A stretch of 64,000 nt of DNA from Isurus oxyrinchus (lineage: Eukaryota): assembly GCA_026770705.1 (NCBI GenBank), contig JANJGN010000034.1:6200001-6264000 (forward strand), read 5' to 3'. The position numbers and the translations under genes were made by a program. Below the pieces are notes generated by a model. That model was not told the origin of the DNA. It searched no databases and saw nothing but the letters and a program-made list of their open reading frames with translations. This document shows, piece after piece, positions 2,859 through 57,712 of this stretch; position 1 is the first letter of the stretch; the number at the start of each line of letters is the position of its first letter.

Positions 2859-2885
2859 AATTTGAACAATTGGAGCAGAAGTACA
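2859..2885 (+). CDS. Micro-exon A (27 nt) of coiled-coil gene: (E)FEQLEQKY
   Basis: gtttttcttag|AATTTGAACAATTGGAGCAGAAGTACA|gtaagt; phase 1-1, open frame. The first residue depends on an upstream exon not seen. Confidence 0.85.
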
Positions 2886-3779
2886 GTAAGTACCAGCTGA
2901 CAAGCAAATGTAGCAGCAAAATTTGCATGGCTTGTTTATAAATTACTTGATCCTGTATTCCCGTGTTAATATCTAGCTAAATGCATTATGCATAGGGAAA
3001 ATTGTAGATTTACATACTTCTTGGGATTACAACCAGCAGGAGATTTCACTAACTTTAGGCCAGAAACGTCAATAGAGGTCACTCCTCCTTTATGCATGTT
3101 TTAACCTAAAGTTGAAGTCTGGTCAAACAACGGTGGTAATTTATTGCCCACATTAAATTTTGCGCTATGCATTGCTAGACTAAATCATACTAAGAATATT
3201 GCGTTCTGTTCTGGCCTCTGAACAGCGTTTTTTAAAATCAGGCTTAGAATATGTGAGTATCTGTATAGCTTGGATAGACCACCCTTCGCCTTTGTGATTC
3301 AATCGAGCCTCACTGTACTGTGGTTAGATCGCACGCGCATTAATCTATACAATCTTGTCTCGGCATTACAATCAAAGTAGCGACACTGTCGATGATGGGA
3401 ACAGGATTTAACATGAAGTGGAGAGGTACTATCAGAACAACTAGTATTATAAAGAGGATTTGTCCATAGAAAATTGAAGGCCCCATTTGGGATAGGTGCT
3501 AAACGTTACGAATTAGTCGCTGATGGAGTCCAAAACAAAGGTCATTAATAAAGTATATTCACTAATGTATCGGTAGGGAATACAGAAGGAACATCTTCAT
3601 TCAGAAACTGTCGATTATATTGAAGTCACTTCCTCATGTGGCTGGGGCAAATAGCATGGAACCTGTAAGGCTAATCTAGATAGTAAACAAGGATGAGATG
3701 AATACAAAATCATATTGAAATGTATCGATATGGTATTGTAAGAATACGACTTTGTGGAGCTTAAGATCAGCATCGCGCA

Positions 3780-4002
3780 TAACATAAATAGCAGCTATTG
3801 GGGAATCGCAGCAGGACTGGCAGCATCAATGGAAAGATAAACTGAGCTAATGTTTCGAGTCTGTTCGACTCTTCTTCGGAGGCACATGGACCCAAAACGT
3901 GAAGTTCCTTACGCTCTCCACAGATCCTGCCCGAACTGTTGAGCTGTTCCATCATTTTTTATTTATTTCAGACACCCAGCATTCGCAGTGGATTGCTTTT
4001 AT
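3780..4002. mobile_element. Old palindromic Penelope-like terminus element
   Basis: Arm cagcaggactggcagcatc...gtttcgagtc followed by a degenerate reverse-complement arm; flanks atcagcatcgcgca / atcatcatcgagaa match 11/14. Confidence 0.55.
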
Positions 4003-4347
4003 ATCATCATCGAGAAAGTGCGACGAATGCCCATTTTCTGAACTGAAACTCCTATGCAAATCCAAGACACCAGCCTCGCTAATAATCAGTTATAACCCAC
4101 AATGTAACATTGGAAGACAAGCAATTGATAATCGTGGCAGCTAATGATGGCTGGTTACCCTCTGGAAAGACGTTTTTCTAGAGGCTTGCCTGAAAATGAG
4201 AATTAACGTGAAAATCTACCTGAGTGCAATTTGACTTCGCCTCGTTTGGGCTGGGACAACAAATCTGTAATATCACACATCTCAGCATGTCTAATAATAA
4301 CATCAGACCAGCGGTGTCCAGTTAATTTTTTCTTCTCTTTCTTGCAG

Positions 4348-4374
4348 AAAAAGATACCGAGAAAAAGGCTGCAG
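4348..4374 (+). CDS. Micro-exon B (27 nt): KKDTEKKAA
   Basis: Long pyrimidine tract ttcttctctttcttgcag|AAAAAGATACCGAGAAAAAGGCTGCAG|gtctgt. Confidence 0.8.
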
Positions 4375-4818
4375 GTCTGTTGCATAATAAGACTAGAATT
4401 TTTTTTCAGAAATGCAACCTGGATTTTGAATGTATGAAGATCAATTATTTTCAAAATAACTAACCAAAATAATTATGTGCCAACTTTGGGACTCTGGCTG
4501 TTACACTCACATTTGTCTGATGAGACTGTGTTTAACTACCCCCGATGCCAATGCCAATGATAAAAAAATTCTATGCCGGTTCTGTCATTTTCCAAGACTG
4601 AATGGATTTTGCACTATCTGATGAGGCAGTATTGGAATCCGGTGAGATTTCCAGTCATAGTTCGGCATAAAATATCGCACGCAATCAATATGGGAGCAAA
4701 TTTGCTAGTTACCAACAGTCTAATTTGCATGCATGATCTAATATCACTAAAGATCCTTTTGGAAATGAAATACAGGATATAAATGAAGGCTACTTTAGGT
4801 GTCAGTTCTGCAGCACTC

Positions 4819-4846
4819 CTGAAGAGGAGTCATACGGACTCCGAAA
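4819..4846 (+). ncRNA. Hammerhead-like core in an old Penelope terminus (element about 4800-4955)
   Basis: CTGAAGA-GGAGTC-atacg-GACTCC-GAAA with a perfect 6-bp stem II; helix III and cleavage triplet are degenerate. Confidence 0.55.
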
Positions 4847-5076
4847 ATGATACCTTTATACATCCAGTGATCCTGCCAAACCTGTTGAAAACTTCCAGCT
4901 TTTTTTTATCTGTTTTTTATCTCTTATTTCAAGCATTTGCAGTATTCTGCTTTCATCACATGAAAAAAGACGTCTGAGAGGACTGCTTGCAACAAAAGGA
5001 TGTGTGACATAATAAGAGCTGGCGAGAAATCTTACTTTATGATCAAGTATAATATTCTTATTCCATTGATTTTCAG

Positions 5077-5112
5077 AAATAGAAGAACTCAACAACAAAC
5101 TACTAGAATTAG
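5077..5112 (+). CDS. Micro-exon C (36 nt): EIEELNNKLLEL
   Basis: ttgattttcag|AAATAGAAGAACTCAACAACAAACTACTAGAATTAG|gtgaga. Confidence 0.88.
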
Positions 5113-5249
5113 GTGAGAACATTAGAATTAAGAGCAGAACATTATTGTAACAAATTTCAAACTATCACAGAAATCTGTATTACACGAGGAAGGGGTGCTC
5201 ATCGATTGGCAAATCAACTATTATTTGTCGAACATTGACATGGTGAATG

Positions 5250-5760
5250 AAAGGGAAACTATGGATTCCCAAGCTCCTGGGTAATCACAAAAATGTCCAA
5301 GGTTTGCACATATACCCTTTATTTGAATAGAATAGAACCTTGGGTATGGATACATGATTCTTTCTAGCAAATTTAAAACAGTCACATTATAAGGATGATT
5401 GGTTACGTTAAGTCAGTAGTGAATGTAGCCAATGGCGCGCTCTGAGTTCTTCAACAAGTGCTGTACAATAGCTAAGTCATATGTTAAGAAGACATTGTGC
5501 TTTGTGTTTGTACGCAGGGTCTGGGTATGTCCGGTCTTTGCATATTACAGACAAATGAAGGAACATGTTGCTTGACCGGATAGTCCTTGTGGAAAAAATG
5601 GGCTGCCTACTTTACATCACACCAGCACTTGAATTCATACATGACAGTGCTCAGGTGTGCGGTCGGAAAAAATTATATGTTTGTGCTTACGGCAACATCC
5701 TTTTTGAGGAAAATGCCAATTGCATAGCCATTGCATAGTGCCAACATTAAATGGGTCACT
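5250..5760 (-). mobile_element. Penelope-like element, inverted GIY-YIG segment
   Basis: Minus strand reads VMYEFKCWCDVK and KQHVPSFVCN, homologous to 14409-14654. Confidence 0.6.
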
Positions 5761-5829
5761 TAATCTGTTGTTCAATTTTTACTGACACCATGCATTCCGA
5801 TATTAATTGTGAAGCCTCTTGATTCTGCA

Positions 5830-7060
5830 TTCGGTAACATTGCCAGTGATTTCCATGAAACATGTGGTATTGTTTAATGTAATGAATTCTACAGTCCCAC
5901 TTCATCCATGCTTCCAATACGTTAACACGGCATTCACGACCTTTGATTCTGGAGTTGCATATAAGGATTTCCTTACAGAACTGAACATGCTTCACCTCGC
6001 ACTCCAATTTACTTTTGAGATAGATTGGTCTAATATTTCCCACTTCCTCGGTGCACTAGTTGAGAAACCTGCTAAGGGGATCTCCAATATTAACTAAAGG
6101 AAACCTACATTAACTGATCAAAATACCAACTGGAATTCTTATAATTTTAAACATTATACGATTTTCCCACTCCATAATCTTGTCAATGGGGCCTGAGCTA
6201 TTTGCTCACCTTTCACATTTTACACTGAAATTGAGTACATCAAATCTAGCCTGCAGGGCAATGGTTACCCTTGTCAGATCATTTTTCGATGTGAATCATA
6301 GGAAATGGTCCAAAGGCCAACACCTTCTAACCTCAAAATAAACTTGTTTACCTCAAATTACATTGGAAATGCAAAGTATCTCAAAACACCTGAAGAGTTT
6401 AACCATGCCATTTTGAGACTGCTACAATGCAGTTTCTTTCTGGTTTCAGTGACATTTTTCACTAAGAGAGTGCGTACTACATTAGCCTATCAAGACGTTC
6501 ACACAGATTGCACAATTTCATGTATGGATTCCAGAGGCCAGTTGCAAAGGCTGTACGTGTCCAGGTTTGGATGATCGAATTAAATAGCATGTTCCATCAG
6601 TTTTACAGAATAGACTTACTACAGACAAAGCCAACTTGCAATCCACTACTTACCATACCCCCACCCAAAAAAACTGTCCACTGTTATATGTGATTTGTTT
6701 CCATTGCGATAACACTCACTGTACAATCCTGAGTGCACACATAGCAAAACAAATAAGTCATTTAAGGTGATCAGTCAAATAAAGAATGGTGGTTCGTTTA
6801 TATGTGATGTAGTCGTTGTATATTCACAAGCAGGGACCCTTCTCTGCGACCAAAAGATAGTACAAAACCTATGCCATCATTGAATTACTGGGATTGTCCT
6901 AAGCCTATGGCCTGCCCCTGCTTTCTCATGTCAGCACCTCAGCCAATCAGAGTAGACTTGTCAGCCAATCTGAAACCTTTCCCTGCAGTGAAAATTGTCA
7001 AGAGCTTTTGAAAATTCGCATTCTTGTGGAACACAAAGAGATGTGACCACCTCCCTCTTG
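5830..7060 (+). mobile_element. Penelope-like retroelement remnant (RT C-terminus, thumb, endonuclease, 3' end)
   Basis: FQYVNTAF...LNMLHLALQFTFEI...FLGALVEK (degenerate RYVDD...LN..H...FT.E...FLD), then RKPT and LQGNGYP. Confidence 0.75.
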
Positions 7061-12404: not shown

Positions 12405-12419
12405 AAAAACTGAAGAAAG
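12405..12419 (+). CDS. Micro-exon D (15 nt): EKLKK
   Basis: ctgatctcattacag|AAAAACTGAAGAAAG|gtaagt; size-matched counterpart at 36248. Confidence 0.8.
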
Positions 12420-18434: not shown

Positions 18435-18489
18435 GTTACCTTTATTTGACCTGATGTCACAAACGCGAGGGGGGTTCAGGTTCGGGATG

Positions 18490-19600: not shown

Positions 19601-19636
19601 AATTAAGCAATTGCCTGGAAATTGCAAAAGACTTAG
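19601..19636 (+). CDS. Micro-exon F (36 nt): ELSNCLEIAKDL
   Basis: tttctttctttatattacag|AATTAAGCAATTGCCTGGAAATTGCAAAAGACTTAG|gtgggt. Confidence 0.85.
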
Positions 19637-21101: not shown

Positions 21102-21128
21102 AAGAAAAGCTAAAACTGAAAGGGACAG
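21102..21128 (+). CDS. Micro-exon G (27 nt): EEKLKLKGT
   Basis: tgccttaacag|AAGAAAAGCTAAAACTGAAAGGGACAG|gtagct; paralogous to 52739 (EEKLRQKQK). Confidence 0.8.
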
Positions 21129-22987: not shown

Positions 22988-23023
22988 AGCTGCTTAAATG
23001 CCAAGAAGCTTTAAAGGAATTAG
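22988..23023 (+). CDS. Micro-exon H (36 nt): ELLKCQEALKEL
   Basis: ataatattgcag|AGCTGCTTAAATGCCAAGAAGCTTTAAAGGAATTAG|gtgagg. Confidence 0.85.
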
Positions 23024-25581: not shown

Positions 25582-25608
25582 GAGATAAGCTGAAAGGAAA
25601 AGAAACAG
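25582..25608 (+). CDS. Micro-exon I (27 nt): GDKLKGKET
   Basis: ttactccttgacag|GAGATAAGCTGAAAGGAAAAGAAACAG|gtgact. Confidence 0.8.
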
Positions 25609-28495: not shown

Positions 28496-28522
28496 AAATT
28501 GGGGACTTTCAGAAGAAGATCA
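28496..28522 (+). CDS. Micro-exon A2 (27 nt): EIGDFQKKI
   Basis: ttgttttctgtttag|AAATTGGGGACTTTCAGAAGAAGATCA|gtaagt; like exon A it ends CA|gtaagt. Confidence 0.83.
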
Positions 28523-30032: not shown

Positions 30033-30059
30033 AAGCTGATCTGGAGCAAAAGGATTCAG
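30033..30059 (+). CDS. Micro-exon B2 (27 nt): KADLEQKDS
   Basis: cctttccttgtctttcag|AAGCTGATCTGGAGCAAAAGGATTCAG|gtaaat. Confidence 0.85.
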
Positions 30060-30948: not shown

Positions 30949-30984
30949 AAATAAATATCCTCAATAACAAAGTTCAAGAATTAG
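30949..30984 (+). CDS. Micro-exon C2 (36 nt): EINILNNKVQEL
   Basis: ttgttctgatattcag|AAATAAATATCCTCAATAACAAAGTTCAAGAATTAG|gtgagc; clear paralog of exon C (EIxxLNNKxxEL). Confidence 0.88.
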
Positions 30985-36247: not shown

Positions 36248-36262
36248 AAAAAACAGTAAATG
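36248..36262 (+). CDS. Micro-exon D2 (15 nt): EKTVN
   Basis: cctgaactgattcacag|AAAAAACAGTAAATG|gtaagg. Confidence 0.75.
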
Positions 36263-37414: not shown

Positions 37415-37441
37415 AATGCAAAGCAAGGGAAAAACTTGATG
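37415..37441 (+). CDS. Micro-exon X2 (27 nt): ECKAREKLD
   Basis: cgttattgttccag|AATGCAAAGCAAGGGAAAAACTTGATG|gtgaga; with D2 it gives 42 nt = 2 heptads. Confidence 0.7.
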
Positions 37442-40789: not shown

Positions 40790-42705
40790 ATATAAGCCAA
40801 ATTTGTCGCTATTTCACAGCAGACTTTATTATTGGGCGTGCACGCGTGGCGAACCCGGAAGCTGTAAAAGCCGTCAACTTTCGGGTGCAGGATCCGTCTT
40901 CAGAGACCCACTGTATTATCCATCCCCTCGAACGGAATTTTACATTCCTAGGGTTTTACATTCACATCGAAGTCCACTAACTTTTGAAAAGCTTGCAGCA
41001 TTTTCCAACCCTGCCCCCGCTTCGATAGGGCTGTATAAATCCGTCCCAAAATGTCATATTTTATTGGCTACAGGACTGCTCATATGATTGAGGAGCGCGG
41101 CGTTTTGGGACATTGTTTCATTAACAGGACTCTCCTGTGAATAAGACTGATTTTATGGTTGATCATCTTCCATTCCTTTAAACAGGGCTGTGAAGTCTCT
41201 GAGATGGGAGGACGTTACGGACTCAGTTGCAGATATAACATCTACAGAAGACGAGAGAGAATTATGTGGACGGGAAGGGTGTCAAGAAAAAGAGGACACA
41301 GTGCGTCCCAGTTTGCTGCAGTTTTGCAGGAAGACAACAGGGTAGCGCCAGACCCAGGCGAAGGGGGGAAACGTAGATTTGCACAATGGAGGCGCAGAAG
41401 ATTCTCTGCTGCCCAAAGAGTTCAAAGGCACGGATTTAGCTCTGCTGGAGAAGGCGTGGGATTTCAAGTGCCACTGTAACCTCACCTTATGACGTCCTCG
41501 CAAATGAGATCTAATCCATCAGGGTTAAAGCCCAGCAGATGCCTGTCCCATTGAAGGTCACATTGAAACTGAACGCCTTCTCAGCAGGCTCAGTTACAGA
41601 ACCTCTGTAGATCTAAGTGGGATAGCGCAGCATGCTGCGCACCATTTCTGAAAGGCATTAACAGATGCAATGTTGTGGAGAGCAGGGAATGACTTCCCAA
41701 TCAAGCAGTTTATTCAGAGTCAAATGGATGGAGCCTCAGTTTAGTTTAGTGTCATGTTTCACACCATGAACGTCCAAACCAGCAGTGTATAACCAGACCA
41801 TTTCTTGAAATTCACAATTACATGTTCTAGGTGAGGTCTGTTCCTGTGGAAACATGATGCATTTGCTGTGCAGCAAACTTAAGTTATCTCCTGCATTCGC
41901 TAGCGTGACCTTTAGCACACGAGGCTGGGAATGATTTTACAGATACCAACGCACCCTGGCCGAAATCATGACGTCAATCAGCTTTGTGTTGCACTGCGAC
42001 CAACTGCTTCTCGCCACAACCACACTGGTGACTTCTTCAGTGTGTTCCTCCTATCTAGTTTGAATCCAGTTGCTTGTCTCCTTTTGCCTGCAGTTGACAT
42101 GACCTGGTCACGTTGCTCAGAAACTGCAGTCTGTGGGGCACCCACCGCGGCTTCACTTTATCTGGGGGCTGGTTTGGTCCTTCTGGAACACCTCTCCGCT
42201 TGCTGCATTGGAAAAGAGCGATATGGAAAATGGTAGAAAAAGTATAATTCCTCAGTGCCAAATGTTGGGGAAAATGCCGTATTTTAGTCAAATTTCTTCC
42301 ATTGTTAGTATTGACATGATTTACAAAGATTAGGAAAATGTAAATACACTTCACGGGCCAGAAAGGAAAATGCATAATTTTTCTCTCAGCTTTGTAAATC
42401 CAGGATATTGATCTGATGGAACACCTGACACAGTTTGGTGCCTGGAAGACCTTGTTTTTGCTGCTTCAGATCTTATTACGGTCATGGCCTGCAGCCATTC
42501 AGAGTGGCCTTTCGGCTCTCCATCACTTATTTGGCGGAGTGGGGGTCGATAACACGCCCCCACCATTAATTTACGGCAAAAATCATATAATCGTTCGAGC
42601 GTTTCTGCCAGCCCACATGTTCAAACGCCGCAAACTTCCGAGTGTGAACCTGCTGTCGGCTCCCGAACTTATCCACGGTTTCGGTGGACCTTCAATTCTG
42701 CCTTA
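40790..42705 (+). mobile_element. Internally deleted two-gene Harbinger element
   Basis: + transposase MPVPLKVTLKLNAFSAGS..DLSGIAQHAAH..LTDAMLWRAG..HDAF; convergent minus-strand Myb/SANT-like EEVTSVVVARSSWSQCNTKLIDVMISAR (41955-42050). Confidence 0.7.
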
Positions 42706-42754
42706 CTCCAAGTCTCCCATTCTCATGCTTCCACCATCAGATTTTTATTTTCTT

Positions 42755-43080
42755 CTTATTCTTTCATGGGATGTAGGCATCCTTGGCTCGGCCAGAAATT
42801 TTTACCCATGCCTAATAGCCCTTGAGTAGGAAGCCACCTTTTTGAACAGCTGTAGTCCATTGGTGCAACTGCATCCAGAATGTTTTAGGGAGTACCTTCC
42901 ACCTTATTGACCCAGCCACGGTGAAGGAAGAGCGATATTGTTCGAACTCAGGATGATTTTTGATTTGGAGAGGTACTTGCAGGTGACGCTGTTTGTGGGT
43001 GCCTGCTGTCCTTATTCATCTGGTTGGTTTTGGACATGGGTTTGGAAGATGCTGTCAAAGGGACATTTGTTATATGCTGC
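42755..43080 (-). mobile_element. LINE-B 3' end
   Basis: Reverse complement of the LINE-B tail (ttcatgggatgtaggcatc...cccttgag). Confidence 0.65.
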
Positions 43081-43091
43081 ACTACGTAAGA

Positions 43092-43570
43092 CCATAAGAT
43101 CATCAGACATAGGAGGAGAAATTAGATTATTCGGTGCACCAATTCTGTTCCGCCATTCAATCATGGCTGATAAGTTTCACATCTCCATTCTCCCACCGTC
43201 TTCCCATAACTTTGATCCACTTATCAATCCAGAACTTATTTATCTTGGTCTTAAATGCATTCAATATCCTGGCCTCCACAACCAGCTGTGGTAATCACAA
43301 CTCTATGGCATAAGATGTTCCTCCTAATCTCTTTTCTAAATTGTCTTGCCTTTACTGTGAGGCTGTGCACTCGAGACCTAGTCTCTCCTGCTAAGTGAAA
43401 CATCTTCCCCACGTCCACTCTATCCAGGCATTTCATTATTCTGTATGTTTCAATCAGATCTCCCTCTTCCTTCTAAATTCCATCGAGTATAGACCCTGAG
43501 TCCTCAAACGTTTCTCATTTGTTTAGCCTATCATTCCTGGGCTCATTTTCGTGACCCTCTCCAGGGTCAT
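43092..43570 (-). mobile_element. CR1/HER1-like 3' fragment
   Basis: LDRVDVGKMFHLAGETRSRVHSLTVKARQFRKEIRRN. Confidence 0.85.
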
Positions 43571-43884
43571 CCTAAAGATGATCAGCGCTCCTGCCAATAT
43601 GTGTCAATGCTGGGGCAAGTGGATTGTGAAGGTGGTGACTGGGCCCTCATTATTTCCAATATCTCCTGTTTAAATCGCTCGTGCTGACCAAACCCACAGA
43701 CAGATTCTGAGAAAGCCAATCCTAATAACACGGTGCGCCATATTCAAAATGTATTTGATGATCTCGGTGTGATGAGCCTTACATTGTTTTGCCACTTCAA
43801 TGTTGCGATTCAAAAACGAATCGTTGATATTTGCATTAATTCCTGCCGCTCCGCCACCCGCCCCCAACCCCTTTTAACTTACAG

Positions 43885-43911
43885 ATGAGGAATCACGGGA
43901 AAAAGATTCAG
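43885..43911 (+). CDS. Micro-exon E2 (27 nt): DEESREKDS
   Basis: cttttaacttacag|ATGAGGAATCACGGGAAAAAGATTCAG|gtaagt. Confidence 0.85.
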
Positions 43912-44029
43912 GTAAGTTTAGGTAATCATAGCAACTGACTTACTCAATGTGAGTTCTGCCTCCTTTAATCGTCTCACTTCATTTGAGGGACAGAGATTTA
44001 TTTTATTACATGGGGTGGGATCCATGAAT

Positions 44030-44370
44030 TGAGCATGTTACAAACTGACTGATTGGCATCAGAGTGCTTTTGAAGTGCAGTCACTGTTTAAGTGTGGGAG
44101 GGTTGTCACGCAAGTATGCACTTCAATGTCCCTTGAAAGTCAATGAGTTTACAATATTTCCCGTGATGTAAATTCTGAGGGCTAGGCTTCGTATCCATAG
44201 AAATTAATGTAGTTGTGACTTTGGCCTAGTGAACCTTTTGAAAGATGGAATTTCTGACAGACTCTAATTCCTTCAGTATGGAACGATGTTTCGTCATCAA
44301 TATTGATGTTGAATCGAGGGAGTGGGATTTGAGCCTATGGACTTCCCATTCTGAGGCTACATAATGTGCA
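44030..44370 (-). mobile_element. Deu-domain SINE
   Basis: cttttgaagtgcagtcactgt, gaaagatggaatttctgacag and ggagtgggatttgagcc motifs. Confidence 0.5.
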
Positions 44371-45333
44371 GTGATTAGCATGGATGTAATTTAATGTTCC
44401 CTCCTTATGGATGTGGAGGATGGGGTGGTGTGTAGTGCTATATAATCAGATGGAAGAGTGCATCTGGTGATCCACTGCCTTCCCATTTACCCCCGCCCCA
44501 CACACTACATCAATTTCTGGGAGGGAAAGAGGGAGGGAGGGCTTCCCACGAGAAGTCCTATTGAGGTCATTATGTAGTCAGCTAAAACCATTTAATGTTC
44601 CCACGCTGCCACAGCATGTTTTCATCCAGCAGTGGGTAGGCAAATAGCCATTCTGCAAAGATGCCCAGAAACCTCCATTGGGTTTACCTGTGACTTAAAG
44701 GGAGTGTGGCAATCCTTTGATTTCAGGAAATCAGATCGAGAGAATCGGCACTGGAAGTGGAGGTGGTGGTGATTGTTAGCGGGGTGGTCGGACGGGAGGC
44801 GGAAGGTGCTGCGTTGCAAACTTCATACACGTTGTCAGTATTGGCTACCCCTATCTCATTGAGACTTACCCTTCCTGCAGGATTCCTACGGGGATCCCTG
44901 GTGAGGGCGCATACTGGCAATGCCAAGCCTGCCAGTGCTGGTGCTGATGGCACTGGAGGGCTGCCTGTGTCGGATTGGTTAACACAACTCAGGAAGGATG
45001 GGGGAAATGGGCGCTACTTCCATTTGCTTATGGTTTAATATAAATGTAGGCCTGGAAATGCCTAGTTAAGTTTTGTATTATTTTTGAAATAGTGCAGCTC
45101 ATCTGGAAAAGATTGACACAGGAATCCCACTGTTATTCCAGGGGGTGGGTGGACAACACTTCACATAATTAACTCTTCCTAATGAAAATGTCTACAGACA
45201 TCAGTCGCCAATGTATTCACTGTGCCTTCTTAAAATTTGCAACATTGGTATATTAAAGCAGGAATAAGGTAATGCATCTACAATTCCAGCTGAGATACAA
45301 ACAATCGATTTTTATTTCATTTATTCATCACAG

Positions 45334-45369
45334 AAATAACCGCTTTGAATAAAAACCTACAAGACGCAG
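45334..45369 (+). CDS. Micro-exon F2 (36 nt): EITALNKNLQDA
   Basis: catttattcatcacag|AAATAACCGCTTTGAATAAAAACCTACAAGACGCAG|gtgaga. Confidence 0.87.
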
Positions 45370-47424
45370 GTGAGAACAATAATTAAGTAATAAAATCGAA
45401 GAGCATTGGTAATTTGACCCAACCCTTAATCTACCTTTCTGTGCGAGCACAGGAGAACTGTCATCAAACTCTCTTTGCCTGCTCTGCAGCCGAGCCGTTG
45501 TCAAAATAAATTCCAAAACATAGACACCTCTGCATGCTGAATTGCTTCCTAACTTCAATTTGAAAAATGTCCAACACTGTTATTTACCCAACACTCCTTC
45601 TCCTACGCTCACCAACCAGGGAAACTTATTTGTGCCTATCTACTCCTTCAGCTTTCCGAACATTTTGGAAACTTTGATCAAATCAAACTTCAACTTATTA
45701 ATTTGCAGAAGATATAATAACAGTTCCTCTAAACTATTCTATTACTTTGGAGTCCTGCTATAATTCTGCTCACTGTACTTTGAACTCCCTCCCAATACAG
45801 CAGGCCATTATGAAAGTGCTATTTTCAGAACTGGCCAGATCAATCAAAGTTTGCTGTAACTGAAACTTTTATATTTCGGGCATGATGTTCAGCTCCTTAT
45901 TCGCTTGCCACTCAGATAGCAGGACAAAAATATTTCATTTGTCTCGTTGATAATTTTCCACAACTACTGGTGACTTTTCAATGATCTATGTGTATGCGCC
46001 AATATGGCAACTGGGATTCCAGATTTTTTAAGTTGTTAACCAGTTGAAACGTACCGTAAATGATACATTTTTCATCGGAAGTGGGTTACCTCACGCTTAT
46101 GCACTGAAAACTCTTTGATAATATATTCCTATTTACTATATGTATCAACATCTATTTCTGATCTCATGTCTCCATCCATGTTGCTTATTTTACTTGCAAA
46201 CTGCGTGTCAGCAGCAAAATTGCCCTTCTGTCTACGCATTATGCCGTGTAAGATGCTTGTGATTGCATGAATCGTCACGCTTTGCCAATTTTAACATCGC
46301 TGTTCTTTTTAACATTCAACCCGTTTTATAGCCCAGCCAATGGATCGTCCTAAATACCATGAGTTTAAGTTGTAGCTAAAAATCACAAATGTGACACTTC
46401 ATCACACAACTTCAGGATATAAATGGAAGCAATGTCAATTGTCAATAGCTCGGATCTTCACAGTAGCAGCAGCGGTAGTTGGATTTCCTCTGCACTCGAA
46501 AACTCCCCCGACATGACACTGTTGCATTAACAGAAATTCCCAGTCCAAAGTCCCCACTCCCACAGAGCCCAGTAGAGTCGGGCAAAGATCGGACACAGCT
46601 GACTGTGGTAATTTTAAAGGTCTGGTCTTGGATTGTTAGTGGATAAGGGAATGGACGTCTGGGTGAATGGGTTAATGGCCGAGTGAGTTAAAGTGTTGAG
46701 TTTCCTTACACAAACTGACCAATCAACATACAGGTTTGGTAAGCTGCAAGAAGGTTTCATTTATTGGAAGGCTGCAACTATGGAATGTTGTGATGTTAAT
46801 TTTCTTTACATATCCAAATGATGTACACATGCAATCTAGAGACCGTCATAGAAAGCCACACGCGACCAGCAATCTTTTAATGCAAACTCAAAGCAGCTGA
46901 TATTGTGACTAATACTGGTTGTTAAATGCTGGATAGCTCACCAAACAACCCTATTATATGGATTCTGCAAGCGCCATTATTCCCAGTGGAATTAAAAACT
47001 TCCACACAGCCTGCTGGTTACATGCTGCTTTATTGTCCTTGGAATACATGTGTGCATCATTTGTATTTGTTTAAAATATTATTCACAACTGCTTCTTAAT
47101 GGATTATGAAGCAAACATTAAGAGTAAATAAATATATACAGGTCGTTTGCTAAAACATATTACACAATTGATTTTTCTCTGTTTACCATTTGAGATTGTA
47201 AGCGTCCTTACAATATAAATATGGTTTAATGACTGTCCTGGATCTCCTAACGGTACAACCTTCCTCAAATCAAGATGGATCATACCAAAGTTCTTGACTC
47301 ATGGGAACATTGACATTGTGTGTATTAGCAGAGTGCTGATTGTCTCGCATGCTTCCACTTTGCGGGTTCATCCTTGGTTATTTTCAAGATGTAATTGGAG
47401 TGTTGGGTATTATATATTTGGGTA

Positions 47425-49360
47425 ATAATTTGTGCTGACTGGTAAGGGTGATAGAATACCTTATCGAGATGGAGTGTGACATAGTTGATTCTGAGGCTTG
47501 CGTGCTCAATCTTAATAAAGGAAACTACATTGTTATGAGGCACGAGTTGCTTATGATGGATTGGGAAACGTTACTTATAGGGATGAGGGTGGAAAGGCAA
47601 TGGCAAGCATTCAAAGAGTGCAGGGGTGAATTGCAACAAGTGTCTATTCCTGCCTGGTGCCAAAGTAAAACAGGAAAGTTGGCCAAACCATGGACTATCA
47701 GGGAAATTAGAGGTAGTACTAGATGCAAGGGAGAGGTACACAAATTGGCCAACTAAATACAACAGGCCAGAGGATTGGGAGCAGTTAAGAATTCAGCAAA
47801 GGAAGGCTAAGGTGTTAATTCAGAAGGGGGAAATAGTTTACCAGAATAAACTCGCAGGGAGCATTATAACTGAATGTAAGCATTTCCATTGGTAGGTTTA
47901 GAGAAGAAATTTGGAGAAGTCTAATATCATTACAGTCAGAAACAGGGGAATTTATCACATATATACAAAGAAATGGCTGACCAAAAAAATACATACTTTG
48001 GTACTGTCTACACAAAGAAGGACACTAATAACGTTGCAGAAACGTTGGGGGAAACAGAGTTTAGTGAAAGAGAGGAACTGAAAGAAATCATTATTGGTAA
48101 CAAAATGGTGTTGGGGAAATTAATGGGACTGAATGCCTGTAAATTCCCAAGGCCTGATAATAGTGCACTTAGGGAAGTGGCCCTAGAAATAGTGAATGCA
48201 TTGATGGTCATCCTCTGAGATTCTATATACTCTGGAATAGTTCCTACAGATTGGAGCATAGCTAATGTAACAACACTATTTAAAAAGGGAGGCAGAGAGA
48301 AAACAGGGAATTATAGACCGGTCAGCCTGACGTGGGAAAAAATCTAGAGTCCATTAAAAAAGATTGAATTGTTGAGCACGTGGTAAACAATGGCACAATC
48401 GGACAGAGTCATCGCGGATTTGTGAAAAGGAAATCATGCTTGACAAATCTACTGGACCTTTTCTGTGAGGAAGATGCAGAGATGTTTCTGTATAATTTGG
48501 ACAGCTGAGTGCATAGGCAACTGTATGGCAGTTGCAGTTTAATGTAGATAAGAGAGAGATTATCCATTTTGCCACCAAAAACAGGAAGGCAGATTATTAT
48601 CTGAATGGCTATGATTTGAGACAGGGGAATGTGCAACGATACGTGGTTGTCCTTGTCAACCACTCGCTGAAGGTAAGCATGCAGGTGCAGCAAGTGGTAA
48701 AGAAGGCAAGTGGTATTTTTTCCTGCATTGCCAGAGGATTCGAATACAGGAACAAGGATTTCTTGCTGCAATTCTACAGGGCCATGCTGAGGTGATACCT
48801 GGAATATTGTGAGCAGTTTTGATCTCCTTAATGCTGAGGAAGGATGTATTTGCTACGGAGAGAGTGCAGCGAGGGTTTATCAGTTTGATGCCTGGGATGG
48901 CGGGACTGACATATGAGGGGTGAGTGAGTCGATTGGGATTATATTCGCTGGAGTTCAGATGAATGAGAGGGCATTTCATAGAAACCTATGAAATGCTGAC
49001 ATATCTAGACAGGGTAGATGCAGGAAGAATGTTCATGATGATGGGGGAGTCCAGAACGAAGGGTCACAGTATCAGGATATGGGGTAAACCATTTAAGACT
49101 GAGATGAGGAGAAATTTCATCACCCAGTCAGTGGTGAGCCTGTGGAATTCGTTACCACAGAAAGTAGTTTTGACCAAAATATTGTATGTTTTCAAAAAGG
49201 GGTTAGATATAGCTCTTCTGGCAAAAGGGAGCAAAGGGTAAGGGGAGAAGTCTGGCGCACTCTATTGAGTTGGATGATCAGCCATGATCAGAATTAACCA
49301 CGGAGCAGGCTCAAAGGGCCGAATGGCAGACTCCTGCTCCTATTTTCAATGTTTTGTTGT
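47425..49360 (+). mobile_element. CR1/HER1-like LINE, 5'-truncated, with the RT core deleted
   Basis: DWSIANVTTLFKKGGREKTGNYRPVSLT, GFVKRKSCLTNLL, QFNVDK, IARGFEYRNK, LDRVDAGRMF; 3' tail gatcagccatgatc...ctcctgctcctat. Confidence 0.92.
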
Positions 49361-49499
49361 ATCTACACCGCATGTCCTTCAGAGATTAGGAAGGCAACTC
49401 ACTACCACCTTCTCAAAGGCAATTAGGGTTTGACAATAAATGCTGGCCTACCCAGCGATGCCCATATCCCTGAAATGAATATTAATAAGGAATTTTTCC

Positions 49500-51300
49500 G
49501 CCTAGCGATGGAGACATGTGTTTTACACCTTGGAGCTTGCCTCTGTCAACCAGGCCTCTCTTGCTGTTGAATCTGTGTACATCGAGGTAAAGCTGCCATC
49601 GTTCTTGACCACACATTTTGTCCATATTCTACTTCGATTTTGCCAATTACCACAAAATCATCGTCCTTTGATTGGCATCCCGTAACATTTTCTACCCATT
49701 TCTTCACATGCAGCTGGAAGATATCCTAAGTATGGATAAGAAAAAAATAAGTTTGGAAGCAGCATTTTCGGAATGGTTTCCTGAAAGCAAATATTTATTG
49801 GTGCCCCTCGTCCAGATGAACTAACGAATGCCTGATTTTGATGCTCACCTTGGATAACATTCTGTGCTTCAAATTTGGAATTCAATTCCTATAAGACCAG
49901 CTCCTCAAAACAAGGTTTAGACGTCTTGGGGGCAAGCATATCCAGATTTGCCATCCTATTGACAGAGATTCCCCCGTCGGTGTGCTGACTCGACAGCTGA
50001 AACAATTACATTCTCTTTCATTCAAGTTCCTGTGTTCCTTCTCCTTTGAGTGCAAAGTGCATTTTCAAAGATGGTCAATCGACAGGAAAGCCTCTTTCCT
50101 GACTTGTGTTACAGAATCACTTCTGACTTTCCCTATAGTTTCAAACCTGCCTAGGTATAATTTTGTACCTAATGAAGTGAACCAGTATCAATGTCCTGCG
50201 TACATTTTGAATTGGTGATCTCGTTCATTATCACAGCATTTGTTTCCATGGACGCCATTTATCCTACTACAGCAACTCTGCCCCTGTCCACCAAGAGATT
50301 ACTTGTGGCTCGCCTGCGGACTCACTTAACTGTGTTTCACTCCTAATGTCCCAAAGCAATGAAAGGTCTGTGTCATTATCCGTAATTAGTTTGGCTTTCT
50401 TGTTAGCTTTCTAGATGAAGGTATCTACAAAGTTCATCTTCACCCTGGCCACTAAGTTGGTGATTCGGTGTTTCCTTATGTAAATCTCTCACACACTCCA
50501 TCGTTCTTCTTTCAGAATGCTGGAAATAATTTTTGCTTGCTTTCATTTTATTGCGAACTCTGGTCAGGACTGAGCAACCATATTTCCTGCATTTGCGAGC
50601 CCAGTGGCTGATTCCAGCAAAACCCTTGGGAAGAGTTTGGAAGGCAGGATGCAAGTGGGTACAGAAGTCTAAGCTTCTTACATGGGTTGCTTGCATTCTG
50701 CTTCTTTGCTGCTGCACCAACAGTGCATCGAATGCTTGCACGTGTCGTTCACCACCCAAAAAGGCATCATATTCTCTGCTGTTATTTAGCACTTTAACAT
50801 GTTTGTATTCTTTCATTTTCTCACAATGCTCTTTCTGGGGGAGTCCAAATCGCGTTGACCCTATAACTAGCTCTGATATGTGTTTACACAACTCAAATTA
50901 CTAAAAGGTAAAATTCTTGCCCTTACCCTAGTAAGTGGGAAGCTGATCAATCGATTACTGCAGCTGTTGTCTTTAAACTCTCAACTCTCATCTGTGTATT
51001 CCAAAATTCATTTTTACATGAAGCTGGTCCTCCAGCACGTAAGCAGTTTCATAGGGTTTTTCTGGTCCTCCGCAAGCAAGACCAAAATGTTAACAATTTG
51101 CAACCTCTCATTACAAACAGTTATCCTTATTTAATTTCCTTTACTTCTTTATATTTATCGGGTTACGTGCTGGATAAACAAAAAAAAAAGCATTACTCCA
51201 ACGCTTGCTTAATTAGCCCAAATTCAACTGCACTCATGTGGCCTCCCCAAGCATCCTGGAATATCTCGTCACCATCTTCCTGATTTTGTCTGTACTTTAC
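49500..51300 (-). mobile_element. Gypsy-like LTR retrotransposon gag-protease remnant
   Basis: Minus strand VKMNFGIHR*EL..RQQ..SIDQ...ISELVIGST, zinc-knuckle remnant GISHWARKCRK, protease-like DIDTGS; many stops. Confidence 0.6.
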
Positions 51301-52738
51301 AGGTGGTCACGCCTCATAGGCAATTTCTGACCTCTCTAATTCACCGAGGGTTCAGAAATGCAGCGACTGTTGTAATCTTTACTCCTCCCTCATTGTTGGC
51401 TGCAGTTCAGGCTCTTGCAATTCATTTTCAAATGATGCCTTTTTCCTGCTCTTTGTGTTTTTTTTTTACCTCTGCATGCGAATGGCAGCCAAGAATATTT
51501 CAATGGTCTTCCAGCTTTTCTGCTCGATTGAAAGCCATGCACATCATGACTCTGAACAAACTTGTCACTTCCTTTCATTGCCAATCCTGCTCTCCCACAA
51601 ATTTGTAAAACACTCTCTGAAAAGGGACTCTGCTTTCTGAGAATCCAGGAACAAAGGGTATATAGCGCCAAATACTATCTGTGCTAGAGGATACCTAACC
51701 AACTACTCTAGTCTATAGACTCAGCAAACTTCATTACTCACAGCAACAGCAAGATCTGCAACTCAGGTGCACTGATAGAATTATGGTCACGAACGGTTTT
51801 AAATCATGTTACCCCTATGCCACATACACGTTATTTGCATATTCTCCTAAAGAGATATCACAACAGTCTGCATGTGAGTCAGTCGGTAATTAGGTGCTTG
51901 CGTAGTTGTTTGGTGGAGAGGTGAATGCTTGAGTAGTTGGGTGGAGAGGTGAGCAAGGTGGTTCTGTTGTTAAATGGGTAGGGGGATGGTGCAGACAAGT
52001 GGGTTGGTGACTACGGTGGGTTGGATGATTAGAATTTAGAATGCGTAGGTGTGTAGAGGCAGTAGTTATGTGGGATGGGTAATCTAATTAGGTTAGGAAT
52101 TTGGACAGTGGTTAGGCAGGAGGAGAGATAAGACAAGTGTATGCGTAGGAGCGTGGGGTGACCAAGTCCCAGTTTCGTCTTCTCTTACTTTTTTCAACTG
52201 CATTCGGTGTAGGTTAAGAGTGAATGTTTCCTGACATGTATCTTGCAACATCCTCTTAACTCATTTCATCATATTCTCTATCCGAATCTTCACCCAAGCA
52301 GGCCCATAAATTTCTACTCTTCATTGGAATGTACCTTAGCCTGTCCATTGAGCATTGCCTTCTGTAACAAGACCAGTTTGCCTATCCTTTTATTTTTTGC
52401 TTGCGGCTAATTCTCTAATTCACCGTGGCGAGGTCCCTTTCATCCCATTGTTGTGAGACTTTCATTTTCTAGGTTAGATTGTCTTTTAATACATAAGCAG
52501 TATTATATAAGAAAATCTAACTGAAATGGTGAGGTAAGCAGATTTAATAGAACATATTAAAAGGTAACTGGATAAATAATTGAATCATTCGAAAATGGAG
52601 AAAGAACAGGTAAGAGGGAATAGTGCAAAAATGCAGCATTGAAGTGAAAAGAAATATTCCTTAATCTTTTGTGGCAAGATCCCATTAATTGATTTCCTTC
52701 TCTTCCATTAACATATCCACTTAATCCATTTCTAACAG

Positions 52739-52765
52739 AAGAAAAACTAAGACAGAAACAGAAAG
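52739..52765 (+). CDS. Micro-exon G2 (27 nt): EEKLRQKQK
   Basis: ccatttctaacag|AAGAAAAACTAAGACAGAAACAGAAAG|gtaagg. Confidence 0.87.
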
Positions 52766-54236
52766 GTAAGGAGTCACATTGTAATGATTTGCGGGCTGTT
52801 AATTTATCGGAATTCCAATTTAGCCACTATCATATTCCCTCTAAAACACTTGGTCTAAGTGTCGATAAGTTGGTTTGAATATATTTGCTCTCCGAGATTT
52901 TACAGATTGCTGCATTCTTGTGTGTCTATCTTATCTGCATTGTGTTTTTTTCATGTGCTTCTGATATGTGATTGAAAGTTATGTTAGTGCGATTGTTTGA
53001 ACAGAAAGGAGTCTCTGTAAACATTGGGATGGTGAAATGGGATGAATTGCCATTCCTCTATGCTGCAAATTATTTCTAATGCTACGATTCCAGCAGATCA
53101 TAAATAGACTCGCCCATTGAAGATTTGCGCGTGCTTTACAGCCTGTTGGAATTTTATCTATTCATTTTGTTCAAAGCAAGACGTTAGAAGTTTTTCCTTC
53201 CGCCTTTATAGTCCACCTTTAAAGTCATGTTCATGGAATTCCATGGACTATCAAAAGCAGTGTTGGAAATAAACCAATTGCAAGTAAGTATATCCTGCTA
53301 ATTCAAAATAAAATATTAACAACAGAGATATTCCCGAGAATGTATTGAGCAATTTGCCAAACGTTAGCCTTCTTTGAGATTCATATGGTTAAATACCTAA
53401 ATATATCCTCGGAAAACCATAAATGTCGTGCCTAAACTAAGAGTATAAAAGCAAGGCGATTTTTCTTCTGGAACTTGCAACTCCATTAGGTGAAGGGTAT
53501 GATCAACAAGAAATGGTAAAAGGAGATTTACGATTTCATGCAGTAGATAATTTTAACCTTTAGCGAAGTTTCGATAGGCAGGGGTTGCAGGGGAACAGGT
53601 TTAATTGAGATGTATAAATCAGTGAGGGATGTGGACACAGTGGATGGTGCTCTGTCTCTTTCCACACAGGAATTTGAGTTGCTCCGTCAAAATGTACTTT
53701 TACTCGCATTCTATCGTCTGGAACTGTGGATGATTATAGCAGAAGTTCCAGCTTTCCTTGCTTTGCACTGCTGACCCTGGGCCCGGCTCGCATTGCGTGG
53801 CATTGGCGTGTTTTGGAAAGATTCGGAGTTTTATGCTCAACCTGTTTGGTCGTGTTGTGCATGCACCTTCCTTGTGCATTGAGTTTTGAGGCACGACTCA
53901 AAAATGCAATTGCAATTGCAGATGTCGGTTCACTAACCTATGCACCATGTGACAAAGTGGAGAGGTTGAACGTGTTTCCAGTGGCATGAATACCAATTGC
54001 ATCGCAAGTTCAGTATAGATGCTTAGCAGATTGATAATAAGATATTGCAAGCTTTTTCTTTCATCCAGATTGTGGTTGGAGCTGGTAAACAGGACCTCTA
54101 GGCGGGGCAAGAGCAGGACAACTCTCACAGTCAAAAATGTATAATTTAGGTTTTCATAGAAAAAAAACACGTTTTTTAATGAGTTGCACAGCAAGTACCT
54201 CCGCCAAGTTAACATTATTGAATAACTACTTTTTAG

Positions 54237-54272
54237 AAATAGAAAACCTGAAAGGATCTTTTGCTCAATGTG
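54237..54272 (+). CDS. Micro-exon H2 (36 nt): EIENLKGSFAQC
   Basis: actactttttag|AAATAGAAAACCTGAAAGGATCTTTTGCTCAATGTG|gtaaga. Confidence 0.85.
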
Positions 54273-54599
54273 GTAAGAACAAGATATTTGGTTTACATCT
54301 CATTGTTACTAGTTGAAGTTAACTGTGCTGAAAGTGTCAACACACACAAAAATACATGTTTTTTTTTTTTCTTCTGTGTTAAAATCTAAAGCAAGGAACT
54401 GCAAATGCTGATAGTAAAGCTATTCAGTTGGATTTTTTTTTGAGATTTTGGGAGGAAGGCATTCGGCCAAACAATGTTTCCAATGTGCATCTCGCTTTCA
54501 ACAAGGGGCAATAGAAATGAAAAGCATATCTACATTTTTCGCATAAGATGCACACAAGGGGGAAAAAAAAGCACAGGAAATTGTTTATACATCTTAGGA

Positions 54600-55005
54600 T
54601 GTAGCAGAAGTGGCTTGATCGTAGCTTTTTTGATCCTGAGCAGTCATGAACTAGCGGATGTGCAGACTATGTTTCCTCTTGTGGGAGAGCCAAGAACTAA
54701 GACTCGTTGATTTAAATTATAAGGTCGCTCAATTTAGACAGAGAAGAATGTTTTTTTTTCCCCAGAGAGTCGTGAGTATTTGCAACTCTGTTCCTCAAAA
54801 GGCAGTGGAAGCAGAGTCCTTGAATATTTCCAATGCAAAGCTAGAAATTATCTTGATTACAAGGGGGTGAAGGTTTATCGGAAGTTGGCAGCAAAGTGGA
54901 GCTGACGTCACAATCAGATCGTCCATGATCGTAATGAATGACGGAGAAGGCTGGAACGGCCAAGTAGCCTTCCCCTGCTCTAATTTGTACATTCATATGT
55001 TCCTA
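54600..55005 (+). mobile_element. CR1/HER1-like 3' fragment
   Basis: DVQTMFPLVGEPRTK..FFPQRVVSICNSVPQKAVEAESLN plus CR1 tail. Confidence 0.8.
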
Positions 55006-56249
55006 TACTGTATCGTGATATGATAAACGGAATAGCACCTAGTGTCATCTGGGTCAAGAATCCCAAAGGTAAACACTTTTCTGAGGAATTCTCCTCTTCG
55101 CCTCAACAACATCCAGCTCATCTCAGTTATATACCTGCCGGGCCTTATTCAGAGACTGAGGGATCTACTTTTAGACCCCGTGACCCAAGAAATTATCATA
55201 ACAGCATTTTTCTTTCAGATCCAATTAAGAATTATACATTGCTCACTAAGTTCAGCCCTAATGCTTCTAAAATACAGGAACATAGACACTGTCTACAGAA
55301 ATATTTAGGAATATTCATTTATCCCATGATTCATTCGGATAAACTTTCATTGCAAACCCTCCAATGTAAGTAAGTTATTGGTTGCATAGGGAAAACGTGA
55401 AGATTAGTCCATGTGTGGTTACAACAACAAGGAGTCAGTTTGTCTCAGTAATAATTCTGAAACTTTGCACATCATTATTATAAAATTAATTCTGAAGCAC
55501 AATTTGATATTCCAATTGCATGCATGGTAAAATTGTGTGAAGCATCTACAGTGCCATACAGGTGCCTGTAAATTCTCTGAATTTTCTGGTTTTCCATTTG
55601 CCCATTCAACGGGAATAGCCCTTTTGTCAATGTCCGCAAATGTCTACATTGCTATAATCTTCTCATTGCAATTTTATTACTTCTGTATTATATACTGTAT
55701 AATAGTTGTGATGTCCAGGTCAAATAGGAATAGATAACGTAGGCTCCAATGTAGTGGTTTCCATGCCAGAATTAATAATTAACTATAATGTTATTGCCGT
55801 CAGTCATCCTCATGAAGCTCACATCTAAGTGAGATAGACCACTAGCGTCCATTTAGCTTCATATGGTGTTTTTTTTTTCCCTGGAGGAAAAGGTCCATCC
55901 GTGAGTTGCCATTTCTGTCAGAAGTGCCAGATAAGAAGTGATCCTGTGCGGCTGTTTACCCTGCTGCTGGGAAAGAGTAGATTCTGATTGTCATGGGCGT
56001 TGCACTGTGAGAGAGAGGTGATGTCATTACCCTGCTTCACCTCCGAGGAATGAAAATAAATGTTTAGGACCGTGGTTTCATGCTGTCAAACATCCTTGGC
56101 CTTATGCCTCTGGCTAAATCGCCACGCAGAAAATCCTACATACCAGATCCTGAAAGAGGGCACGGACCAGCGAAGTCAACAAGATAAGTGCAATTATGCC
56201 ACCAATTTTAGAGTGTCAAAAGGCCCCAAATGCGTTACAGCCAAAGAGA

Positions 56250-56760
56250 GAGGAACAGAAAATGCTGGAAAAATTCACCAGAGGTGACAGCATCTGTGGA
56301 GAGAGCAATAGAGTTGACATTTCAATCAACATGACTCTTCCACAGGGCAGTAGAAATGTTGTGAAATGTTTTCTGTTTAAAGGCTGTGGAGTTGGATAGA
56401 AAACCAGCTACAGGTCCGAGAAAAGGAGAGATTGACAAAGACGTCATGAATGAAACCCAAATATACTGGTAGTGGTATAGGATAAAACAGGTGCTGATAG
56501 TGGCATTAAAGTAAGAAAGCAGAATGTCATAATGACAAGTCAAGAGTAAACACTCTGAAAAGAACAACATGAACAACTAACAGGGATGTCTTGTAGGTGT
56601 GGCGTGGTGGGAGTGCCGTGCTGATAGGGGGTGGGAAAGAGATCGAAAAAATGATAAAATGGAGGACTAAAAAGGGCGATATAACAATGCATAGATGAAT
56701 GAAAATGAAAATGAATAAAAAATAATTCGTTAATAAATAAAAATTAATCTTGAAAAATTA
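56250..56760 (-). mobile_element. Penelope-like 3' terminus, single arm
   Basis: aacagaaaatgctggaaaaattcacc...gcatctgtggagagag...gttgacatttc, homologous to 39405-39750. Confidence 0.6.
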
Positions 56761-57113
56761 TTTTTTTAAAAATGGGTGTTGTTGATATTGTTGTTGATGA
56801 GGTTTACATTCACTTATTGGAAAAAACAAAAAACTTTGCAATCTTCAGAAGATCAAATCAATTTCCGAATGTTTAGTTCCAGCATGAATTATAATCAATT
56901 TGAATAATATTCATATAGAGGAGATGATCAATTATGTTATTTTTATCTTTACTATCTCTATTATTTGGCGGCTATTATTATGTAATAATCATCCCTTAAC
57001 GAATATTTGAGCTTTCAGTAAATGTGTTTCTTGCAGTAACATAATATTATTCATGACAGTGAAATTATTATTGGTATCTTTTTTACTGATATGCCATTCT
57101 CATTTATTAATAG

Positions 57114-57140
57114 AGACAAATCTCAAGGAGAAATCGAAAG
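57114..57140 (+). CDS. Micro-exon I2 (27 nt): ETNLKEKSK
   Basis: ctcatttattaatag|AGACAAATCTCAAGGAGAAATCGAAAG|gtattg. Confidence 0.8.
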
Positions 57141-57253
57141 GTATTGGCAGCAGCATGTCACAACTTTAAGTAGGACGAACATTTTAGTGGTGGACTCCGC
57201 CATGTCAAAGCTTAAAACGATTTTATGATCTTCTGTGTGTTCCCTTGTTGCAG

Positions 57254-57288
57254 AAGAATCTGATAGGGGGTCCGAACTGACACCTTGA
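57254..57288 (+). CDS. Coding part of terminal exon: EESDRGSELTP*
   Basis: tgtgttcccttgttgcag| after a 113-nt intron; in-frame TGA at 57286-57288; poly(A) signals about 410 nt downstream. Confidence 0.68.
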
Positions 57289-57698
57289 GAAAGTACAATT
57301 CAAGCTGTAGTTGTTACTTGAATGACCTTTTGTATTTATGTCAATTTTCGTCTTTATCTGGGCCCGTCAGACGTTGTGAAGTTGCAGTAAATGAACTTCG
57401 CCAGGAGATATTTAATACTATATCAGGTCACCCCAGATATTTTGCAATATGTTCGTTAATTATTAATCCCTTACCATGATACTTCACAATTGAATTTCGG
57501 AACCGTCAGGTATCGTGGAAATGTTGTGGACATTTATTTCTGTCTTTGCACTGTTCAAGTTTGGGATAAATCAGGCTTTCATTTGCTGGGATTTAAATGT
57601 CCATCTGTGACCATCTATAAGAAATCGTTCTACAATTTTGCATGACATATGTGTGACCACACCTAGAATTCTGTATGCAGTATTCATCTTCATATATA

Positions 57699-57712
57699 AA
57701 TAAATGAATAAA
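57699..57712 (+). terminator. Tandem AATAAA polyadenylation signals (putative 3' end of the gene)
   Basis: aataaatgaataaa: hexamers at 57699-57704 and 57707-57712. Confidence 0.5.

Follow-up and report, generated by a model that had tools for sequence, protein, structure and literature searches.

Long heptad-repeat rods combined with a B30.2 domain are known from the enterophilins of the guinea pig, mammalian proteins that have no membrane anchor and are much shorter than the product considered here. Enterophilin-1 is reported to interact with SNX1 (PMC13749957), the butyrophilin design joins heptad exons to a B30.2 domain (PMC8813856), and butyrophilins are present in cartilaginous fish, where their heptad number varies (PMC12841164). 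The tails of chicken BG proteins are encoded by 13 to 36 heptad exons of 21 or 24 nucleotides (nt) without B30.2 (PMC4046983, PMC8813856); the BG heptad exons split a codon, and alternative splicing changes the length of the coil (PMC5938342, PMC4046983). A zipper protein derived from BG is reported to be cytosolic and to regulate actin-myosin (PMC4046983, PMC5938342, PMC8813856). Here we analyze a 64,000-nt stretch of the shark Isurus oxyrinchus (the window; C34:6200001-6264000, C34 being contig JANJGN010000034.1 of the 4.98-Gb assembly GCA_026770705.1; window positions are counted from 1), which lies inside a functional gene (herein gene 1) that consists of symmetric phase 1-1 micro-exons and ends in one B30.2/PRY-SPRY exon. 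An earlier note on the window had placed a terminal exon of the gene within it; the exon series it described stands, but its extent does not, since the window is ~4% of the locus and the B30.2 exon lies beyond it.

The micro-exon series and its B30.2 exon

Acceptor and donor rules alone, applied de novo to the window, give 61 candidates of 9 to 60 nt on the + strand, with spikes at 27 nt (nine) and 36 nt (six) and at most four of every other length; the − strand gives 44 candidates, of which one is of 27 nt and none of 36 nt, and shows no such spikes. Once the listing is relaxed and a window-trained model is added, all 18 internal exons that had been proposed are recovered de novo (ten of 27, six of 36, and two of 15 nt, 516 nt in total, all flanked by AG/GT, phase 1-1, and stop-free), 17 of them by the scan and the remaining one by the model. 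The 27-nt exons lie on the + strand at 2859-2885, 4348-4374, 21102-21128, 25582-25608, 28496-28522, 30033-30059, 37415-37441 (the weakest acceptor, 2.5), 43885-43911, 52739-52765, and 57114-57140; the 36-nt exons at 5077-5112, 19601-19636, 22988-23023, 30949-30984, 45334-45369, and 54237-54272; and the 15-nt exons at 12405-12419 and 36248-36262. All are supported by both scan and model except 54237-54272 (model) and 57114-57140 (scan, with an intact paralog copy at C34:7287480). Their translations, compared by eye, match the peptides listed before. The coding fraction of the window is 0.9%, close to the ~1% first estimated, and none of the 23 open reading frames (ORFs) of at least 120 amino acids (aa) represents the micro-exon product, which ORF calling had indeed been expected to miss.

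Two phase 1-1 exons had been overlooked: one of 36 nt at 59004-59039 and one of 27 nt at 60783-60809, both on the + strand and found by the scan, the former with an intact paralog copy at C34:7289364 and the latter with an intact internal duplicate at C34:6295361. They lie downstream of the putative terminal exon, which had been drawn to a stop at 57288. The elements of that exon are present (AG at 57252-53, TGA at 57286-88, and AATAAA at 57699 and 57707), and it would span 57254-57712 on the + strand. Its acceptor score of 5.0 is lower than that of 19 of the 20 exon acceptors of the window; 46 other window sites combine an equal acceptor with a stop no more than 15 codons away and AATAAA no more than 500 nt away; and the stretch aligns to its paralog at an intron-like 82% identity, its coding portion being shortened there by a deletion of 11 nt. 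On these grounds 57254-57712 is probably intronic. Because the acceptor and one AATAAA are retained in the paralog, an alternative last exon may nonetheless exist there. An extra residue that had been queried finds no counterpart, as there is no 3- or 6-nt exon candidate between 12419 and 19601. High-copy interspersed repeats occupy introns at window positions ~47000-49600, 54300-54850, and 61750-62000, the last with very many genomic copies at ~90%.

The same pattern extends far beyond the window. When 581 kb of gene 1 are scanned by intron-side signals only, the lengths of 27 and 36 nt account for 84 and 94 sites, respectively, and each other length from 12 to 48 nt for 18 to 50; the scanning model was trained on 20 window exons that are themselves inside the scanned DNA. 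The phase-1 frame is stop-free in 75 of the 84 and 84 of the 94 sites, compared with 48 and 39 (27 nt) and 26 and 56 (36 nt) in the other frames. This contiguous DNA keeps to one strand and one phase with no exon-free gap above 16 kb, and its − strand yields three exon calls at a score of at least 15. The series fills C34:6.10-6.396 Mb and 5.60-5.885 Mb and is found in samples back to C34:4881641. Beyond the window it goes on for 1.3 Mb or more in the upstream direction and for 132 kb in the downstream direction, up to the B30.2 exon; positions 1-64000 of the window are thus gene interior on the + strand. With a score threshold of 15 and lengths of 15, 21, 27, and 36 nt, gene 1 has 184 micro-exons (13, 9, 85, and 77, respectively) in the 705.8 kb read of its 1,538.8 kb (46%). 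Segment densities, two 5′ segments being represented by sparse samples, extrapolate to a total of ~378 exons.

The series runs into a B30.2 exon at C34:6395819-6396339, whose phase-1 acceptor lies 631 nt past the last micro-exon; it is open, has a stop at its end, and is followed by AATAAA. The encoded head matches Pfam SPRY (E value 1.8e-13) and does not match Pfam PRY. Its best solved relatives are BTN3A1 and then TRIM58 (Protein Data Bank [PDB] sequence matches to 7e-20), and a model of the head with a predicted local distance difference test score (pLDDT) of 66 resembles the BTN3 and TRIM B30.2 folds (TM-score ~0.6). We infer that micro-exons and B30.2 exon are joined on one transcript. 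A search for RNA containing the B30.2 exon and the 3′ untranslated region listed no such data set. Three guessed-RNA runs on window positions 42500-62000 gave essentially repeat coverage and no exon joint among the matches listed, and are uninformative either way.

Duplication, selection, and relatives

The rod has grown by tandem duplication of genomic DNA on two scales. A unit of ~28 kb with ~11 exons is repeated ~10 times at 79 to 83% identity over C34:5.88-6.16 Mb, and a tandem duplication of more than 1 Mb (~4.828-6.4335 and 6.4337-7.5199 Mb) made a second gene (gene 2), whose B30.2 exon is 92% identical to that of gene 1. A 241-kb segment that bears exons in gene 1 is absent from gene 2; within it lies a 629-nt inverted repeat of 98.7% identity (C34:4901290-4902723). 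C34 holds four further close B30.2 paralogs, namely gene 2 and three exons at C34:2708644, 3474122, and 4816515 (45, 44, and 58% identity), and all five B30.2 exons are open. Those at 3474122 and 4816515 point apart across 1.34 Mb and may mark further giant genes.

These duplicates allow the exons to be compared with their surroundings. When partners are located by their flanks only, AG, GT, and an uninterrupted frame are conserved in 66 of 69 duplicated exons, compared with 47 of 183 AG..GT control pairs having the same ~81% flank identity. One of the three failures is the start of an immunoglobulin (Ig) V domain rather than a micro-exon; in a count limited to the two genes, 50 of 52 duplicates internal to gene 1 are retained, as are 16 of 16 shared by the two. 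In 54 exon pairs, selected by detection of both partners and hence biased toward conservation, mismatch is 10.8% versus 16.6% in introns, gap columns number 0 of 1,521 versus 715 of ~29,900, and the ratio of nonsynonymous to synonymous substitution (dN/dS) is 0.41. The duplicated exons are under purifying selection, and genes 1 and 2 are therefore translated now or were until recently. Together with the length and phase spike and the heptad periodicity described below, these results bear out the original proposal of a real gene for a coiled coil. Exon turnover in the array is visible in two duplicate copies that lack splice sites, one of them also with a stop (C34:5840779 and 5764781; partners 6350395 and 5771876).

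An exhaustive search with the head returned 1,757 proteins at an E value of at most 0.001, of which the best 150 were listed. In a quick-method tree of 162 domains (14 isoform or redundant rows omitted; RING and Ig labels assigned from sequence motifs), genes 1 and 2 and 11 homologs form a 13-row, long-stem clade with an SH-aLRT of 100. Ten of the 11 homologs are named, and all ten are chondrichthyan (Callorhinchus, Leucoraja, Narcine, Scyliorhinus, Hemiscyllium, Rhincodon, and Cetorhinus), in agreement with the chondrichthyan context assumed at the outset. Pfam scans of 12 family proteins find SPRY, at times with a weak PRY, and no RING, B-box, or Ig domain. The database names of the homologs, TRIM39-like, A33-like, and nuclear-pore anchor-like, are automatic labels; since the longest named members, which have long coils, reach 945 and 1,697 aa under such misleading names, it is plausible that annotation misses or truncates the gene, as had been suspected. 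Predicted isoforms of three homolog genes differ by internal blocks of six or nine residues, as exon skipping would produce.

Other searches added little. A 36-nt exon profile run on homolog rods proved nonspecific, giving 16 matches in P0035 and 13 in P0164 and also 10 in the unrelated teleost protein P0133. Word-index protein searches, an insensitive method, found no family member with the single domain as query, and others gave one family member in 10 matches or two that were already known. Among the papers listed by searches of the open-access literature, none describes the clade. P0133 itself (Megalops, 712 aa) combines a signal-like start, a long coil, and B30.2 outside the clade, possibly as a convergent secreted form. 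Long contigs of a related genome cover most of window positions 43871-61777 at ~7% difference, and the locus therefore exists in that genome.

The predicted rod and its rival explanations

The spliced product is predicted to be rich in Lys, Glu, and Leu and almost devoid of Pro. Hydrophobic residues occupy positions 2, 5, 9, and 12 of the 36-nt exon and position 4 of the 27-nt exon, where Lys is commonest at position 7; the commonest module, 36 + 27 nt or 21 residues, therefore corresponds to three heptads with one polar core position. A heptad period (3.3 to 3.8) forms the peak in 20 of 22 analysis windows along the product of the 64-kb stretch and in 84 of 127 over C34:6.10-6.40 Mb (shuffle mean 0.13). 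Of 244 exons, 222 end in G, and the junctions created by skipping give no stop in 190 cases within the window or in 4,656 over C34:6.10-6.40 Mb. The 184 exons counted correspond to ~1,800 residues and the extrapolated 378 to ~3,700, which at the coiled-coil rise of 0.148 nm per residue amounts to 0.55 μm. Tentatively, and with more doubt than confidence, we read gene 1 as one transcription unit of ~1.5 Mb with ~380 coding exons, nearly all of 15 to 36 nt, specifying a half-micrometer rod tuned by in-frame skipping and belonging to an undescribed family annotated only as fragments; its presence in chimaera, rays, and sharks would date that family to before the chimaera-shark split, which took place more than 400 million years ago. 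Titin has 363 exons, a number that ~380 would match or exceed.

We propose that the gene derives from the 3′ half of a butyrophilin-type ancestor, the heptad exons and B30.2 without the Ig ectodomain, expanded in cartilaginous fish. The product would be a parallel coiled-coil oligomer of up to ~3,700 residues (~0.55 μm) whose B30.2 heads cluster at one rod end and bind a partner, and, since the frame survives the skipping of nearly any exon, splicing would set the length of the rod. The least certain step, a guess by analogy with what is reported for the BG-derived zipper protein, is that the rod may have an intracellular role, either as a spacer or as a cytoskeletal scaffold. We hold this proposal, taken whole, with equal measures of confidence and doubt.

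Several observations weigh against it. The heptad period peaks in only 64 of 110 analysis windows over C34:5.60-5.885 Mb and, where gene 2 begins, in 11 of 25, although missed or extra exons would have this effect. The neighboring exons at C34:5685491 and 5685852 have T rather than G as their last nucleotide and would each form a stop codon with the next exon, so that a full-length frame requires both to be skipped; they account for the 91 of 3,003 skip junctions that give stops in the 5.60-5.885 Mb segment. As features in their own right, these exons (C34:5685491-5685878) may represent poison exons, decaying sequence, or an interruption of the long frame. The 5′ end of gene 1 was not found in the 46% of the interval read, and the isoform evidence consists of predicted models from other species. 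The tree leaves the sister group of the clade unsettled, and descent from butyrophilins rather than TRIM proteins consequently rests on exon design. Cys occupies position 5, a core heptad position, in 27 of the 68 36-nt exons, the B30.2 head of gene 1 has no Cys, and two homolog models, P0151 (Leucoraja) and P0035 (Callorhinchus), begin with a hydrophobic stretch, be it real or intron read-through; these three features fit secretion better than the cytosol.

The 5′ flanks and the neighboring Ig genes bear on the alternatives. No convincing signal-peptide or transmembrane (TM) exon was found in C34:4817001-4857000 or in the 5′ region of gene 2 (C34:4.857-4.90 Mb was sampled only), and conserved blocks between the 5′ regions of the two genes revealed no clear first exon. 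Ten hydrophobic phase 1-1 TM candidates in the examined DNA, which includes part of the 5′ portion of gene 1, were all unconvincing. A hydrophobic candidate at C34:5660117 was rejected because micro-exons extend upstream of it. In our own scans, polypyrimidine tracts before micro-exons read as false signal peptides. By tblastn there is no Ig domain in the examined C34 DNA, although a very divergent one could lie in the rest of the interval, and no RING or B-box in 1.03 Mb. Probing the whole genome with the IgV-IgC domains of a shark butyrophilin (150 of 160 candidates scored) turns up 66 matches, mostly on contig C21 and none in the 2.7-7.5 Mb interval of C34. C21:82-118 Mb also holds a very large B30.2 cluster, with most of the 150 genomic B30.2 matches listed, among butyrophilin-type Ig exons, and is probably a TRIM/BTN region.

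At C34:7510720-7524148 a neighboring gene comprises a signal exon, a single IgV exon of 351 nt that is nectin/PVR-like, and a TM exon, with no IgC or micro-exons up to 7.544 Mb; more nectin-like IgV exons lie at C34:13.07-13.73 Mb. A partial duplicate of this neighbor (C34:6421428-6424690) retains its signal exon and donor and has a broken IgV. The exon at C34:6421428 was considered as the signal-peptide start of gene 2 and rejected: the next exon is the nectin-like IgV with a stop and a frameshift, and the intact copy at 7513578 runs into its own TM exon. In principle, the intact phase-1 signal exon of the partial duplicate could splice into the first micro-exon of gene 2, which is missing the 241-kb segment of gene 1. 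The nectin-like IgV (10 matches) has no copy upstream of gene 1, and the TM exon falls outside the duplicated unit.

The Cys pattern and the hydrophobic starts of P0151 and P0035, the latter followed by basic sites, could instead indicate a secreted, disulfide-linked rod or fiber (in mucus, egg jelly or case, seminal fluid, or plasma) with B30.2 heads as lectin-like or pattern-binding tips. Phase 1 would suit a signal-peptide exon, and the teleost P0133 shows the same order of signal-like start, coil, and B30.2. Against this, no clear signal peptide opens the remaining named homolog models, or their start looks like intron read-through, polypyrimidine tracts ahead of micro-exons mimic such peptides, C34:4817001-4857000 contains no convincing signal exon, and the signal exon ahead of gene 2 is part of a broken copy of an IgV gene; we consider secretion rather unlikely. 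A membrane protein of the butyrophilin/BG type, with Ig and TM exons in the 5′ part and a giant cytoplasmic tail, appears distinctly improbable. The exon design and B30.2 of gene 1 are butyrophilin-like (PMC8813856), BG-like 21-nt exons are present (9 of 184 in gene 1 and 7 of 37 in gene 2), and a signal-IgV-TM gene adjoins the array, but the butyrophilin probe has no match in the 2.7-7.5 Mb interval of C34 among the 150 of its 160 candidates that were scored, the neighboring IgV is nectin-like, is not copied upstream of gene 1, and has its TM exon outside the duplicated unit, and family members scanned by Pfam carry no Ig.

The stop-forming pair at C34:5.6855 Mb raises the question whether the 1.5-Mb array is several shorter rods, made from internal promoters or alternative last exons, of which only the last would carry B30.2. 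A block of 21-nt exons in mid-gene 1 (C34:5.08-5.26 Mb) between stretches of 27/36-nt exons, homolog models of at most 1,697 aa, and the survival of the 57254 acceptor with one AATAAA in the paralog all point that way; the single strand and phase without a gap above 16 kb over 581 kb, the lack of any close B30.2 exon on C34 between 4.817 and 6.396 Mb, and the recurrence of the 57254-type signature at 46 other window sites make it improbable. That the series is a chance AG..GT pattern or a decaying pseudogene is hardly credible: although no transcript was seen and 2 of 52 internal duplicates are broken, such a reading is contradicted by the retention test, the length and phase spike, the mismatch, gap, and dN/dS values of the exons, and the open state of five of five B30.2 exons on C34.

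Comparison with known systems

The gene resembles chicken BG in being built from numerous short, symmetric heptad exons whose first codon is split, phase 1-1 being kept throughout gene 1. It differs in that BG has signal, IgV, and TM exons, whereas gene 1 consists mostly of 27- and 36-nt exons with a terminal B30.2 and no Ig found; its rod is ~10 times longer, and the adjacent IgV is nectin-like and belongs to the neighbor. With butyrophilins it shares the order of heptads followed by B30.2, on a transcript presumed common to both, and BTN3A1 is the nearest solved head. Unlike butyrophilins, it has no IgV-IgC exons nearby, the butyrophilin-type Ig exons of this genome being on C21; its rod goes far beyond "a few" heptads; and its head falls in a separate clade. 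The coiled coil with PRY-SPRY recalls TRIM proteins, but no RING or B-box occurs in 12 homologs or in the 1.03 Mb of DNA examined. The C-terminal domain itself is of the B30.2/PRY-SPRY family by Pfam SPRY, PDB matches, and fold model. Chordate coil + SPRY clusters of the ESM Atlas (1,579, 1,277, and 1,802 aa) are alike in architecture, with feature scores of 0.92, 0.90, and 0.79 to the Callorhinchus homolog, and are leads by description.

The gene has the exon design of BG and butyrophilin tails, yet neither the Ig domain that defines BTN and BG nor the RING that defines TRIM was found in the family proteins scanned or in the DNA read; it apparently represents an undescribed family, obscured by automatic database names, that uses a known exon design. 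If transcribed as a single unit, it would be on a par with the vertebrate genes richest in exons, with only ~1% of its span coding, and would serve as a natural experiment on the definition and skipping of micro-exons by the hundred. Set beside the known systems, it would be the butyrophilin/BG heptad-exon design scaled up ~10-fold, without the Ig ectodomain, in cartilaginous fish.

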